Positions 16,507 to 62,254 of a DNA stretch of 64,000 nucleotides are shown in pieces. Within the stretch, counting starts at the first letter, position 1; each line of letters opens with the position of its first letter. This DNA is from Escherichia coli. Lineage in GTDB: Bacteria > Pseudomonadota > Gammaproteobacteria > Enterobacterales > Enterobacteriaceae. The notes under the pieces were generated by a model. It saw only the letters and a list, made by a program, of their open reading frames with translations. It searched no databases and had not been told where the DNA came from. The stretch lies in assembly GCF_046105845.1 (NCBI RefSeq), contig NZ_CP151004.1, one strand, 5' to 3'. Position numbers and translations under genes: made by a program.

Positions 16507-17316
16507 ATGAATGATTCACTCAAGGCGCAATGCGTTGCCGAGTTTTTGGGCACCGGACTGTTCCTCTTTTTTGGCATTGGTTGTTTGTGCGCCCTGAAAC
16601 TTGCCGGGGCAAGTCTGGGACTGTGGGAAATTTGTATCATTTGGGGGTTAGGGATTTCGCTTGCTGTTTACCTTACGGCAGGTATTTCCGGCGCTCATCT
16701 CAACCCGGCTGTTACCATTGCTCTGTGGCTGTTTGCCTCTTTCCCTGCCCGTAAAGTGCTGCCATTTTGTGTGGCGCAATTAGCGGGTGCCTTTGGTGGT
16801 GCGGTTCTGGCATATTTTCTCTACAGCAGTTTGTTTACCGATTTTGAATCTGCTCACAATATGGTGCGTGGTAGTGCAGAAAGTTTACAACTCGCCAGTA
16901 TCTTCAGTACTTATCCGGCAGCGGCGATTAATGTATGGCAAGCTGCGTTGGTCGAAGTGGTCATAACGTCCATGTTAATGGGGTTGATTATGGCGTTGAC
17001 CGATGACGGTAATGGCGTACCCAAAGGACCGCTTGCGCCTTTACTTATTGGTATTCTGGTTGCTGTTATTGGTGCTTCTACCGGACCATTAACCGGTTTT
17101 GCCATGAATCCAGCGCGTGATTTTGGACCTAAAATTTTCACCTGGCTTGCGGGTTGGGGGGAAATTGCGATGACTGGTGGACGCAATATTCCTTATTTCA
17201 TTGTACCCATTATTGCACCGATCATTGGCGCATGTGTTGGTGCGGCGATTTATCGCTATCTCATTGCAAAGAATTTACCTGTCAATAGTGTAACGCCTAA
17301 AGAAATTAGCGAATAA
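16507..17316 (+). CDS. pduF: PduF propanediol diffusion facilitator (MIP/aquaglyceroporin family)
   Basis: Internal ATG gives MNDSLKAQCVAEFLGTGLFLFFG; NPA motifs (HLNPAV and MNPARD) present; the supplied ORF carries an upstream extension. Confidence 0.9.
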   Translation: MNDSLKAQCVAEFLGTGLFLFFGIGCLCALKLAGASLGLWEICIIWGLGISLAVYLTAGISGAHLNPAVTIALWLFASFPARKVLPFCVAQLAGAFGGAVLAYFLYSSLFTDFESAHNMVRGSAESLQLASIFSTYPAAAINVWQAALVEVVITSMLMGLIMALTDDGNGVPKGPLAPLLIGILVAVIGASTGPLTGFAMNPARDFGPKIFTWLAGWGEIAMTGGRNIPYFIVPIIAPIIGACVGAAIYRYLIAKNLPVNSVTPKEISE

Positions 17317-17518
17317 CGAAATAATCTGGCAGTTATAAACGTTTATTTTTTTACTGTTTGTGATCTGCTTTCCGAACTTATTAAAAAGTCTCCCGCTTCA
17401 CGGAGGCTTTTGTTATTGTCCTTTGTGCTTCTCGTCAGTAAATCATCAGGGATGATGTGAAGATTAAATGTAAAACAATTGTTTTGCTATAACAATAAAT
17501 TAACTGGGAGGTTTTATC

Positions 17519-18433
17519 ATGATTTCTGCGGCGACACTTAATTCAGAACTCATTAATAAAATCGCGCAGGATTTTGCGCAGGCGACCAGCCTTGCGGTTG
17601 TCGTGGTCAATATTCACGGCGATGAAATTTCCGAGCTGTTTAACTTCACTCCATTTTGTCAGATGATGCGGCAACACCCTCAGCTAAGCACTCGATGTCG
17701 CATGAGCGATCGTTGTGGGGGCTTGGAAGCCTCTAAATCCGATCAGCCTTGTATTTATCGCTGTCATGCCGGATTAACCGATTTCTCTATTCCACTGGTA
17801 ATCGCCGGGCATTTAGTCGGTTTTGTATTGTGCGGGCAAGTTCGTCTGCGTAATGATGATGTCGATTTGGTCGATATTCTGAATGTCGATGATTGCTGGC
17901 AGGCAGATCCCGAATTACTTAATGAATTCCGCAAAGTTCCTGAGATGGATTACTCAAGAGTTATGGCCTCTGCTGATTTGTTGAAGTTGATTGTGGAAAA
18001 TTGCCTCAAAAAACAACTCAATTTTGTGGTTATTAAAGAGAACAAATCTCAGTCAGATTCGGTGCGCCAGACTCGTGCGCCTAATCCCCACGACAATAAA
18101 ATGAAAAAAGCTTTACGCTATATTGATGCGCATTTATCAGACGATTTGCGTCTGGAAGATGTCGCCTCACACGTTTATCTAAGCCCTTATTATTTCAGTA
18201 AGTTATTTAAGAAATACCATGGAATCGGGTTTAATGCGTGGGTAAACCAACAACGGATGGCCAGCGCTCGTGAGTTACTGTGCCATAGTGACTGGAGCAT
18301 CGCCAGCATTGCGCGTAATTTAGGTTTTTCACAAACAAGTTATTTTTGCAAAGTTTTCCGTCAGACTTATCAGGTTACGCCGCAGGTGTATCGACAGCAA
18401 GTGAGTGATAATGCGGCGATGGAAACGGTATAG
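17519..18433 (+). CDS. pocR: PocR, AraC-family activator of pdu/cob genes
   Basis: 304 aa; C-terminal AraC-type HTH region (LRYIDAHLSDDLRLEDVASHVYLSPYYFSKLFK); position after pduF. Confidence 0.9.
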   Translation: MISAATLNSELINKIAQDFAQATSLAVVVVNIHGDEISELFNFTPFCQMMRQHPQLSTRCRMSDRCGGLEASKSDQPCIYRCHAGLTDFSIPLVIAGHLVGFVLCGQVRLRNDDVDLVDILNVDDCWQADPELLNEFRKVPEMDYSRVMASADLLKLIVENCLKKQLNFVVIKENKSQSDSVRQTRAPNPHDNKMKKALRYIDAHLSDDLRLEDVASHVYLSPYYFSKLFKKYHGIGFNAWVNQQRMASARELLCHSDWSIASIARNLGFSQTSYFCKVFRQTYQVTPQVYRQQVSDNAAMETV

Positions 18434-18534
18434 AGTAAATGCCCCAAAAAAAGAGGACGGTTTAAATAAACTCTGCAATGAATAATTAACGTTATTTACC
18501 TGTTATGGGAAAAGTGAAATCAGCTCATAACATA

Positions 18535-18790
18535 CGCTGACAGGTGTGGCACATTTGTGCCTGGGAAGAGGGTGAAAATCCCTCGCAGCCCCCGCTGCTG
18601 TAATGCTGACAAACCCGAAAATGCCACTGATCGCGAGATTGGGAAGGTCGGGAGAGGATGACGCTAAGCCAGAAGACCAGCCAGTCAGTCAATACCAACA
18701 ACTTCGGTGGGAAGTGGGTTGCCCGGAAGCGTCCGGTAGAGTACCGGCGCGTCTTTATACCCCTACCACCCTGAAAGGATCAGGGTATGG
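18535..18790 (+). promoter_or_regulatory. Cobalamin (AdoCbl) riboswitch, leader of the former cbi operon
   Basis: Conserved aptamer core ggtgtggc...gcctgggaagagggtgaaaatccctcgcagcccccgctgctgtaatg...gccactg and B12-box-like taagccagaagaccagcc at 18666-18683; downstream stem accctga/tcagggt can sequester the aagga ribosome-binding site before the ATG at 18787. Confidence 0.8.
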
Positions 18791-18921
18791 CGGCATCATT
18801 TAGTTCTTTCATCGCAGTGCCGACAGGCACCAGGGCTGCACTTAAGGTGTGGCAATCTTGTTTCATGGCTCATCAACCAGACCGCCATTACAGGAAACTA
18901 AGTGGAGGGCGAGAGGCATGA
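18787..18921 (+). pseudogene. 44-codon mini-ORF, possible decayed 5' end of cbiA
   Basis: Starts MAA directly after the riboswitch, as cbiA does in Salmonella, but diverges after a few residues; stop TGA overlaps the next ATG (ATGA). Confidence 0.3.
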
Positions 18922-19355
18922 AAACGATAAAACCCGAATCGATAGCTCTTTTTTGCCTCTTATCTGGAGATGTGGATCTGGCGAAATATCTGGCTGAAAT
19001 ATTGCCAATAACCTGTTTTGTTGGTGAGGACTGGCAGCAAGATTTCCAGCCTCTTGATGGTGGGTCTGTGCAATCGTTATCAGATGTGTATGGCGATTAT
19101 TCAGTGCTGCTATTGATAGCAGCTGAAAGCGAGATATCCGTACCAGAATGGCTCGCTCATTCTGAAGGAACGACGGTAATTGTGATTGCAGAACACAATG
19201 CCCGTTTGCTGACTGGTCCGGCTGGTGGGGCTGTAGCATTGATCCATTATCTGAATGAAATCTGTCATTCCAGAGAAACCGCTGTCAATGACGCATTTTG
19301 TCGTACGTTAACACGAGGAAGTCTGGCTATTCCGCAATGCCATCTTCTTTCGTAA
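18918..19355 (+). CDS. Hypothetical protein, 145 aa, no family recognised
   Basis: ORF with ggaggg ribosome-binding site 8 nt upstream of ATG 18918; start overlaps the stop of the preceding mini-ORF; lies between the riboswitch and cobU. Confidence 0.4.
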   Translation: MKTIKPESIALFCLLSGDVDLAKYLAEILPITCFVGEDWQQDFQPLDGGSVQSLSDVYGDYSVLLLIAAESEISVPEWLAHSEGTTVIVIAEHNARLLTGPAGGAVALIHYLNEICHSRETAVNDAFCRTLTRGSLAIPQCHLLS

Positions 19356-19488
19356 TGGATTGAGAATGCTGGATTTTTAATTATATTACGCGCAGTATTA
19401 ATCGCGTAAATGTTTTGCGGTCAGCAACGGTGGGGGATCCATTGTTCTGTTCAATGAATACCATCATACAATTGAATCAGGAGTCGGT

Positions 19489-20034
19489 ATGATGATTTTG
19501 GTGACAGGTGGAGCACGGAGCGGGAAGAGTCGCCATGCAGAGGCGCTTATTGGGGACTCTTCACAGGTTCTGTATATCGCCACCTCGCAAATCCTTGATG
19601 ATGAGATGGCTGCACGGATAGAACATCATCGGAAAGGCCGCCCGGCGCACTGGCGCACGGTGGAGCGTTGGCAACATCTTGATGAATTAATTCATGCAGA
19701 CATTAACCCGCATGAAGCTGTGTTGCTGGAATGCGTTACCACAATGGTGACTAATCTGTTGTTTGATTATGGCGGAGATAAAGACCCTGATGAATGGGAT
19801 TATCAGGCGATGGAACAGGCAATTAATGCTGAGATTCAGTCGTTGATTGCTGCCTGCCAACGTTGCCCCGCGAAGATTGTATTAGTGACTAACGAAGTGG
19901 GAATGGGGATTGTGCCGGAGAGTCGTCTGGCACGACATTTTCGTGATATTGCCGGGCGGGTAAATCAGCAACTGGCCGCTGCGGCAAATGAAGTGTGGCT
20001 GGTGGTTTCGGGTATTGGAGTAAAAATCAAATGA
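19489..20034 (+). CDS. cobU: CobU adenosylcobinamide kinase / adenosylcobinamide-phosphate guanylyltransferase
   Basis: 181 aa beginning [22 protein letters not shown] (P-loop) and ending [10 protein letters not shown]. Confidence 0.95.
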
Positions 20035-32351: not shown

Positions 32352-32427
32352 TGGCTCCTCTGACTGGACTCGAACCAGTGACATACGGATTAACAGTCCG
32401 CCGTTCTACCGACTGAACTACAGAGGA
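32352..32427 (-). tRNA. asnV: tRNA-Asn (anticodon GUU)
   Basis: Reverse complement is the 76-nt E. coli tRNA-Asn TCCTCTGTAGTTCAGTCGGTAGAACGGCGGACTGTTAATCCG...GAGGAGCCA. Confidence 0.95.
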
Positions 32428-34759: not shown

Positions 34760-34835
34760 TGGCTCCTCTGACTGGACTCGAACCAGTGACATACGGATTA
34801 ACAGTCCGCCGTTCTACCGACTGAACTACAGAGGA
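34760..34835 (-). tRNA. asnU: tRNA-Asn (anticodon GUU)
   Basis: Identical 76-nt tRNA-Asn sequence on the minus strand. Confidence 0.95.
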
Positions 34836-36583: not shown

Positions 36584-36659
36584 TCCTCTGTAGTTCAGTC
36601 GGTAGAACGGCGGACTGTTAATCCGTATGTCACTGGTTCGAGTCCAGTCAGAGGAGCCA
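36584..36659 (+). tRNA. asnW: tRNA-Asn (anticodon GUU)
   Basis: Plus-strand copy of the same 76-nt tRNA-Asn sequence. Confidence 0.95.
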
Positions 36660-51907: not shown

Positions 51908-51983
51908 TGGCTCCTCTGACTGGACTCGAACCAGTGACATACGGATTAACAGTCCGCCGTTCTACCGACTGAACTACAGAGGA
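51908..51983 (-). tRNA. asnT: tRNA-Asn (anticodon GUU)
   Basis: Fourth copy of the same 76-nt tRNA-Asn sequence, minus strand, between yeeJ and mtfA. Confidence 0.95.
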
Positions 51984-52974: not shown

Positions 52975-53064
52975 GGAGAGATGCCGGAGCGGCTGAACGG
53001 ACCGGTCTCGAAAACCGGAGTAGGGGCAACTCTACCGGGGGTTCAAATCCCCCTCTCTCCGCCA
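52975..53064 (+). tRNA. serU: tRNA-Ser (anticodon CGA), long variable arm
   Basis: GGAGAGATGCCGGAGCGGCTGAACGGACCGGTCTCGAAAACCGG...CCCCCTCTCTCCGCCA: class II tRNA with CGA anticodon and encoded CCA. Confidence 0.9.
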
Positions 53065-61965: not shown

Positions 61966-62055
61966 ATGATTGTTGCGCCAAACGGCTGGTGTGATCACGC
62001 GCACATTAATGAAGACATAAAAAAAGCCGGCATCATGCCGGCCCAAAAAATATAA
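61966..62055 (+). CDS. Candidate 29-codon small ORF with strong Shine-Dalgarno
   Basis: aggagg at 61955-61960, 5-nt spacer, ATG at 61966; encodes MIVAPNGWCDHAHINEDIKKAGIMPAQKI; contains hairpin gccggcatcatgccggc at 62027-62043. Confidence 0.3.
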   Translation: MIVAPNGWCDHAHINEDIKKAGIMPAQKI

Positions 62056-62254
62056 ACAAGACGATAAAAGGCTAATAACGGAGGCATCATGACACAGAAT
62101 AATAAAAAGGTATAATTGTAATCAGTGCTAATATATTGATTGAATGAATTAATAAAGCCGATATCAAAGATAAATAAAATCGCTCAAAACGATTTATCCT
62201 GTACTCACTGCCGTTGCGCAAAAATTATCTATTTGTTCAAAAAATGATTGAGTC

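Follow-up and report, generated by a model that had tools for sequence, protein, structure and literature searches.

The window analysed here is a 64,000-nucleotide stretch of Escherichia coli DNA (contig NZ_CP151004.1), and the feature of interest within it is an open reading frame (ORF) of 145 codons, beginning MKTIKPESIALFCLLSGDVDL, which runs on the plus strand from an ATG at 18918-18920 to a TAA at 19353-19355, between a cobalamin (B12) riboswitch and cobU. By homology this ORF is identified as the in-frame 5' part of cbiG, the gene for cobalt-precorrin-5A hydrolase, comprising the N-terminal domain (approximately CbiG residues 1-140) and a short junction tail, and is referred to as cbiG'. 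The best explanation of the data, to which we assign a probability of roughly 0.6, is that cbiG' is a truncated cbiG relic that has been kept as a translated, weakly constrained leader ORF gated by the riboswitch. What appears to be new is the truncated, N-terminal nature of the gene and its in-frame conservation across Escherichia; the affinity to CbiG itself is already contained in database names.

Identification of the ORF as a truncated cbiG

Residues 1-118 of the ORF matched the NCBIfam equivalog NF004463 (CbiG, cobalt-precorrin-5A hydrolase) over profile positions 1-125 of 351 (E 6.5e-19). The score was 68 bits against a family cut-off of 546 which, together with the part of the profile covered, indicates that only the N-terminal third of CbiG is present. 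A complete Salmonella enterica locus extending from pduA to cobT (L010) served as the reference for comparison. CbiG residues 1-119 from this locus aligned in frame to residues 1-112 of the ORF with 43% identity (blastx, E 3e-21). The start codon of the ORF aligned with that of cbiG, nucleotides 18914-18958 matched the cbiG start region in a nucleotide alignment, and codons 1 to ~125 followed cbiG in the same order and reading frame, beginning at the start codon of that gene. When all three frames were compared by blastx with all 20 proteins of the Salmonella locus, no significant match other than those to CbiG and CobU was found, and the first 15 residues of CbiA matched weakly.

The first-pass annotation, made from the sequence alone, could place the ORF in no family that it recognised and regarded it as either a chimeric relic or an uncharacterised gene. 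The ORF can be placed as the N-terminus of CbiG, both by NF004463 and by comparison with the Salmonella protein, cbiG lying outside the genes that had been considered. Nor is the gene entirely uncharacterised, as it is already named 'cobalamin biosynthesis protein' (or 'hypothetical protein') by PGAP, 'Protein CbiG' in UniProt and 'CbiG' (LF82_328) in the annotation of strain LF82; none of the annotations found marks it as an N-terminal fragment or as kept in frame between Escherichia species. The searches against the Salmonella cbi genes that had been suggested, with all frames included, yielded the in-frame match to CbiG and no frame-shifted match to any cbi gene. Homology to a curated family and a frame open in nine Escherichia lineages set the ORF apart from one that is open by chance.

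Searches with other tools returned little besides the CbiG relationship. A Pfam scan of the ORF produced nothing even at E 10, and a sequence search of the PDB produced chance-level matches only (E ~0.5). A word-indexed protein search recovered Escherichia and Shigella copies only, a contig scan with the single ORF protein recovered 3 loci only, and an exhaustive search of 1.84 billion representatives recovered 32 matches only, namely CbiG N-termini and the E. fergusonii copy. The AlphaFold model, for which an alignment of the ORF with 14 CbiG proteins was used as input, showed a moderately confident alpha/beta fold over residues 1-133 (predicted local distance difference test score, pLDDT, 70.8), followed by a disordered tail. 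In a Foldseek search against the PDB nothing was found at E<=0.001; the CbiG homologue 3eeq had the best template modelling score (0.53), but with E ~0.1 and at rank 11, and generic Rossmann-like matches were left unused. The predicted similarity to 3eeq is consistent with the CbiG assignment, although it is not strong evidence for it.

In the literature, no paper was found that describes the remnant as a truncated fragment conserved across the genus, the only mention being a table entry for strain LF82. In that strain the LF82_328 transcript was detected by RNA-seq at 13-17 reads per kilobase per million mapped reads (PMC4509574). LF82_328 was equated with cbiG' by its name and its position next to pduF, and the fragment is therefore transcribed.

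Loss of CbiG enzyme features

In an alignment of the ORF with 14 CbiG proteins, the family-wide motifs GxxGIxVRxxAP, DPAVVVxDE, SLLSGHxGGAN and PVITTATDV were found to be deleted or replaced, the ORF reading AAESEISV----P, EGTTVIVI---AE, ARLLTGPAGGAV and HSRETAVND at the four respective positions. The middle and C-terminal domains are also missing, while a real CbiG of ~350 residues carries all three Pfam domains (CbiG_N, PF11760; CbiG_mid, PF11761; CbiG_C, PF01890). cbiG' is like the NF004463 genes in descent, start codon and position; as with Salmonella cbiG, a riboswitch-led operon start precedes it, and the end of cbiP and cobU follow. It differs in covering only the first third to 40% of the gene, in the absence of the CobE-like C-terminal domain and in the erosion of its motifs. 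The context differs also, as a complete cbiG lies between cbiF and cbiH, whereas here the genes from cbiA (its first codons excepted) to cbiF are missing, as are those from cbiH to cbiP (its 3' end excepted). The partner enzymes of the pathway, encoded in the complete cbi loci used for comparison (L009 and L010), are absent from the locus in the window. Amino acid identity to Salmonella was 43% for cbiG' against 79-89% for PduF, PocR, CobU, CobS and CobT (82% for CobU).

cbiG' should not be filed as a CbiG enzyme, because domain architecture, motifs, score cut-off and pathway context all fail. Judged by these features, its product cannot be the CbiG enzyme, the pathway being gone, and hydrolase activity on cobalt-precorrin-5A is expected to be absent. 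A suitable label would be truncated cbiG (N-terminal domain only) rather than B12 biosynthesis enzyme; pdu+ E. coli that carry cbiG' are still unable to make B12 de novo.

Organization of the locus and deletion junctions

The aptamer of the B12 riboswitch, the leader of the former cbi-cob operon, is present at full length on the plus strand at 18525-18699 (Rfam RF00174, 109.4 bits). It is followed on the same strand by a hairpin, CCCTGA-AAGGA-TCAGGG (18769-18785), evident in the sequence and in the centroid fold, the loop of which holds the Shine-Dalgarno (SD) sequence of a mini-ORF of 44 codons. This mini-ORF, the former cbiA start (cbiA'; 18787-18921, plus strand), begins ATGGCGGCA and ends in an ATGA overlap, formed by the cbiG' ATG and its own TGA at 18919-18921. 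cbiG' has an SD sequence of its own, GGAGG at 18904-18908 (plus strand), 9 nt upstream of the ATG, and a GGAGG-like motif was kept in all aligned Escherichia loci. The spacer between cbiG' and cobU occupies 19356-19488, exactly 133 nt. cobU itself (19489-20034, plus strand; from the ORF list and the RefSeq annotation of near-identical loci) is intact and comes first among the salvage genes that survive, cobUST. These coordinates agree in full with the SD-led ORF, ATGA overlap and distance to cobU that had been described from the sequence alone. The two further proposals, that the ORF lies downstream of a B12 riboswitch and that it occupies the scar of a cbi deletion, were also borne out, the aptamer being intact and cbiG' being flanked by a stub of the cbiA start and a 3' remnant of cbiP.

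Nucleotides 18521-18795 shared 82% identity with the cob leader of Salmonella (L010 3704-3987), and as this alignment continues through cbiA codon 3, the mini-ORF starts at the ATG of the ancestral cbiA. The body of the mini-ORF (18796-18913) scored no better than shuffles against the cbiA 5' and cbiF 3' regions; because it is assignable to neither gene, the upstream junction can be placed no more finely than within this interval. At the other end, 19264-19291 was collinear with cbiG codons ~127-137 (5 of 500 shuffles scored as well) and 19381-19444 with the cbiP 3' region (local alignment score 32; the highest of 500 shuffles scored 28), while 19458-19520 matched the end of cbiP and the start of cobU in L010 (blastn, E 1e-11). 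The decayed 3' end of cbiP ('cbiP, ~last 110 nt; 19381-19488, plus strand) now forms the region upstream of cobU. The tail of the ORF gave no significant match when compared with the whole of cbiP, and its last ~20 codons (19292-19355) are assignable to neither cbiG nor cbiP. From these alignments the junction between cbiG' and 'cbiP is placed within 19292-19380, at or just before the stop codon of the ORF.

The locus is read as pocR, B12 riboswitch, cbiA', cbiG', 'cbiP and cobUST, derived by at least two deletions from an ancestral Escherichia array of the Salmonella type (pocR, B12 riboswitch, cbiABCDETFGHJKLMNQOP, cobUST). The first of these deletions removed cbiA (after ~codon 3) through cbiF, and the second everything from cbiG (after ~codon 130-145) to a point ~110 nt before the end of cbiP. 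The chain from pocR to cobUST is common to E. coli, E. albertii, E. marmotae, E. ruysiae and two other Escherichia lineages, and to E. fergusonii minus cobUST. This shared chain shows that a full cob/pdu locus of the Salmonella type stood here in the ancestor of the genus, and that cobUST, in K-12 as in other E. coli, is its leftover. This ancestral locus bears on the old debate over the loss and reacquisition of B12 synthesis in enterics.

Evolutionary constraint on the frame

The frame of cbiG' was open for 144-156 codons in nine Escherichia lineages, with no stop or frameshift. Frame +1 alone was open in all taxa, the other five being broken in most, and all of the indels in cbiG' were in frame. 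The protein was 68-74% identical between species, in comparison with 88-99% for its neighbours, and the pairwise ratio of non-synonymous to synonymous substitution (omega; Nei-Gojobori) was 0.3-0.6 against 0.02-0.15. Omega was also fitted with our own maximum-likelihood codon model (GY94-type, F3x4, neighbour-joining tree), with a likelihood ratio test (LRT) against omega = 1. This gave 0.447 for cbiG' over nine taxa (P 5e-11) and 0.497 when E. fergusonii was left out (P 8e-7). The constraint was graded along the gene, omega being 0.26 for codons 1-45 (P 4e-6), 0.54 for codons 46-95 (P 0.011), and 0.67 and 0.63, neither significant, for codons 96-118 and 119-145 respectively. Under the same model omega of the mini-ORF was 0.82 and not different from 1; as an internal control, this value indicates that the pipeline does not manufacture low omega. 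The E. fergusonii branch had an omega of 0.33 (P 2e-5) and the E. albertii branch, for which the test was underpowered, one of 0.48 (P 0.07).

Divergence at third codon positions of cbiG' was 0.225, that is, at the rate of the neighbouring genes (0.21-0.27), and at first and second positions 0.12-0.15, ~55-65% of the neighbour rate. Overall nucleotide divergence was 0.148 for cbiG' and 0.139 for the mini-ORF region. In simulations with substitutions placed at random on the tree at the observed rate (5000 replicates), all 8 tips were free of stops in ~0.04% of replicates for cbiG' and in 11% for the mini-ORF. Within E. coli, the ratio of non-synonymous to synonymous diversity (piN/piS) was 0.44 for cbiG' against 0.07-0.08 for pocR and cobU. 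Between 5'-deleted and intact E. coli alleles dN/dS trended higher (up to ~1.3, with one internal stop), the counts being too small to test, and the stops that are the signature of unitary pseudogene decay were seen only in the pdu-less E. coli that lack the 5' end of cbiG'.

An open frame, in-frame indels and an omega of ~0.45-0.5 indicate that cbiG' is most likely not evolving as dead DNA, and these substitution patterns fit a translated, weakly constrained frame rather than neutral decay. The first-pass annotation had offered frame-shifted identity to a cbi gene as the mark of a pure relic. A cbi relic it is, through homology that is in frame and not frame-shifted; 'pure' is unsupported, because omega is ~0.5, the frame is open across the genus and the fragment is transcribed in LF82 (PMC4509574).

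An antisense ORF of 113 residues that overlaps cbiG' (18898-19239, minus strand) was considered and rejected as a candidate gene. It was open only in E. coli alleles and probably reflects chance, as it was broken in all other Escherichia species.

Distribution in E. coli and across Escherichia

The riboswitch and the ORF were found in the present arrangement in 644 of 5426 complete E. coli genomes, the gene being the same at 94-99% identity. In ~200 further E. coli genomes a deletion that reaches into pduV has removed pdu, pocR, the riboswitch and the first 97 nt of the ORF; some of these 5'-deleted alleles have internal stops and are flagged as pseudogenes by PGAP. In most of the remaining E. 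coli, K-12 MG1655 among them, only the spacer and the last ~170 nt of the ORF are left. In K-12 MG1655 the remnant has a 9-nt deletion and a premature stop (CAA to TAA), and lies with the cbiP-derived spacer in a stretch of 255 bp that separates cobU from the CP4-44 prophage and carries no annotation (NC_000913.3 2065765-2066019; L011 5766-6020). Two variant alleles were also recovered. One (P0001, a Logan contig, 188 residues) carries a small deletion that fuses the mini-ORF in frame to cbiG', and the other (P0004, 136 residues) combines the full 5' part with a 3' end of the K-12 type (9-nt deletion, early stop), a composition that implies recombination between haplotypes.

Outside the E. coli of the window, an ORF of 144 residues with the 44-codon mini-ORF and the ATGA overlap was present in six further loci, from E. 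albertii, E. marmotae, E. ruysiae, Escherichia sp. E4736, strain E69 (L003) and one more locus (L006); in total, the mini-ORF had 44 codons and the same overlap in 8 Escherichia lineages. E. fergusonii (L008 9608-10698) carried a cbiG' of 156 residues at 47% identity, with a mini-ORF of 49 codons and a 20-nt overlap typical of cbiF-cbiG. This species lacks cobU, cobS and cobT, ldtA being located 227 nt past the cbiG' ORF, and has a riboswitch of 113 bits. In E. albertii (L014 and L004) cobU is degraded by a frameshift, an internal stop, deletions and the loss of its N-terminus, and cobT is absent, while cbiG' is intact.

Two observations were made on the neighbouring genes in these species. 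The cobS gene of E. albertii is intact and strongly constrained (omega 0.02-0.04), and its dS against other species was ~1.0-1.3, against only ~0.45-0.55 for the adjacent cbiG'; a dS so much larger suggests that cobS has had a different history from cbiG'. In E. fergusonii a glycyl-radical-enzyme microcompartment cluster lies next to the pdu locus, just past ldtA (L008 11691-20471). It encodes a PFL-like protein of 1128 residues, a radical SAM activase, bacterial microcompartment (BMC) shell proteins, an aldehyde dehydrogenase and an Fe-ADH, and resembles the choline-utilisation (cut) locus.

A riboswitch-gated leader ORF as the preferred explanation

The structural features expected of a riboswitch-controlled leader ORF are present at the locus: an intact riboswitch with its expression platform, an SD-led start, and ATGA coupling in 8 lineages. 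In E. albertii, E. marmotae, strain E69 and E. fergusonii the RF00174 aptamer was intact, with scores of 105-113 bits, and the SD hairpin was conserved in every Escherichia locus as well as in the cbiA leader of Salmonella. Ravnum and Andersson reportedly found in Salmonella that B12 controls cbiA translation through a hairpin that sequesters the ribosome-binding site. The aptamer, the SD-holding hairpin and the cbiA start codon of the Salmonella leader are all kept here (82% identity over 275 nt). The difference lies downstream, as the first frame is here a 44-codon stub coupled to a gene fragment instead of a 459-codon cbiA followed by 16 more cbi genes, and in E. fergusonii no cob gene follows at all.

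We propose that the intact riboswitch gates translation initiation at the old cbiA start, the SD hairpin acting as its expression platform. Ribosomes that finish the 44-codon mini-ORF would reinitiate on cbiG' at the ATGA, and others would load at the GGAGG of cbiG' itself. cbiG' would then be a translated leader ORF under riboswitch control, with no catalytic role left. Translation of this 0.6-kb leader could shield the transcript from premature (Rho-type) termination and so pass the B12 signal to the downstream genes, cobUST where they survive. Selection would be expected to keep cbiG' translatable and its product foldable and non-toxic. Consistent with such a role, the length of the mini-ORF and its ATGA overlap have been kept while its amino acids drift, and where the 5' end and riboswitch have been deleted the remainder of cbiG' has gained stops and the pseudogene flag.

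The arrangement may be compared with leader and upstream ORFs in general, which act by coupling or by protection from Rho polarity. The riboswitch-gated start, the ATGA overlap and the keeping of openness more than of sequence, especially in the mini-ORF, are shared with these. In comparison with typical leader peptides cbiG' is unusually long, is derived from an enzyme and persists after its downstream cargo has been lost, and its leader role is here proposed from sequence.

Several points weigh against this explanation. The riboswitch, the mini-ORF and an open cbiG' have been kept both in E. fergusonii, from which cobUST is gone, and in E. albertii, where cobU is dead and cobT missing; if cbiG' served cobUST expression alone, this persistence would be left unexplained. 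In most E. coli (~88% of complete genomes) cobUST is expressed with neither the riboswitch nor an intact cbiG' in place. A role for which any ORF would do predicts an omega of ~1, and the value of 0.26 in the N-terminal third points to some constraint on the protein. The RNA-seq data from LF82 show transcription only, so that translation of cbiG' is a proposal, and the coupling and anti-termination steps are likewise ones that we infer.

The spacer provides a further argument of this kind. A sigma-70 promoter-like site, TTGAGA-16-TATATT, lies within it at 19360-19387 (plus strand) and is a candidate promoter for cobU. In a consensus scan the site had 10 of 12 consensus matches, which on its own is not above shuffle expectation, and it was the only promoter-like site in the region. 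The 133-nt spacer was invariant in six diverse pdu+ E. coli and differed by 1 base in K-12, while the adjoining cbiG' is polymorphic (piS ~0.04). The spacer may be a cobUST promoter built from cbiP remnant sequence. With a promoter-like site of its own and an invariant spacer, cobU may not depend on read-through from the riboswitch.

Alternative explanations

The points raised against a leader function keep alive a rival at the level of the protein, in which cbiG' encodes a small protein derived from the CbiG N-terminal domain that has acquired its own function under B12-riboswitch control. We regard this as doubtful, although it accounts for several of the data. Omega is below 1 and falls to its lowest value in codons 1-45, in contrast to 0.82 in the adjacent mini-ORF, and the frame and riboswitch have been kept in E. 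fergusonii without cob genes and in E. albertii with its dead cobU. The constant partners of cbiG' are pdu, pocR and the riboswitch, and not cobUST. The truncation lies near the boundary between CbiG_N and CbiG_mid, and residues 1-133 are modelled as a compact alpha/beta structure (pLDDT ~71). The constraint is nevertheless weak, at an omega of 0.45-0.5 against 0.02-0.15 in the neighbours, codons 96-145 are indistinguishable from neutral, and every conserved motif of the CbiG N-domain is eroded. In addition, the ORF has been lost in most E. coli, with the 136-residue and other variant alleles in circulation, and the exhaustive search, with its 32 matches, revealed no stand-alone homologous family outside Escherichia. 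Possible roles for such a protein include corrinoid binding or hand-over for salvage, or the linking of B12 availability to Pdu or PocR.

A more specific form of this idea, which we consider slightly more doubtful again, is that riboswitch, mini-ORF and cbiG' are a genus-wide unit making a B12-repressed protein of ~15 kDa derived from the CbiG N-terminus that has taken on a new task, for example binding or handing over corrinoids or signalling B12 status to Pdu and PocR. If true, this would explain the survival of the module with an intact riboswitch in E. fergusonii despite the loss of all downstream cob genes.

That cbiG' is a neutral pseudogene fragment, still open by chance and without a selected role at the level of RNA, translation or protein, is improbable. 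Such a fragment would account for a protein that evolves 3-10 times faster than those of its neighbours, for the disappearance of the hallmark CbiG motifs, for a nucleotide divergence similar to that of the mini-ORF region and for piecemeal deletion in most E. coli. Against this, the LRT rejects omega = 1 both with and without E. fergusonii, and the probability that 8 taxa would be free of stops is ~4e-4 even at the observed, sub-neutral rate. The indels are all in frame and frame +1 is the only one conserved open, while an adjacent true pseudogene, E. albertii cobU, has acquired a frameshift, a stop and deletions.

Finally, a chimeric or frame-shifted relic, in which segments of more than one cbi gene were joined or a frame other than the native one is read, as the first-pass annotation had envisaged, is very improbable and is ruled out for the bulk of the ORF, as codons 1 to ~125 are collinear and in frame with cbiG and none of the 20 Salmonella locus proteins gave another significant blastx match to it, so that only the last ~20 codons, which fall in the cbiG'/'cbiP junction interval and match neither gene, are left to such an origin.

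It is mildly surprising that a fragment deprived of its enzymatic context is still open, with an omega of ~0.5, behind a conserved riboswitch. cbiG' represents a tractable natural case of operon-remnant retention, in which leader translation and polarity can be set against new protein function.

Neighbouring genes and other features of the window

Upstream of the riboswitch lie pduF (16507-17316) and pocR (17519-18433), and cobU is followed in order by cobS, cobT and ldtA. The enterobacterial small RNA (sRNA) STnc230 was detected on the minus strand at 17375-17458, in the pduF-pocR intergenic region (Rfam, 74.8 bits), and the loci of Salmonella, E. fergusonii, E. marmotae, E. albertii and strain E69 carry it at the corresponding position. 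Further away, the Hfq-binding sRNA rseX was found on the minus strand at 62019-62108 (99 bits), and tRNA genes at 32355-32427, 34763-34835, 36584-36656, 51911-51983 and 52975-53061. Together, rseX, the tRNA genes and the nac/cbl region show the window to be a normal stretch of E. coli-type chromosome surrounding the asnV/asnU tRNA cluster.

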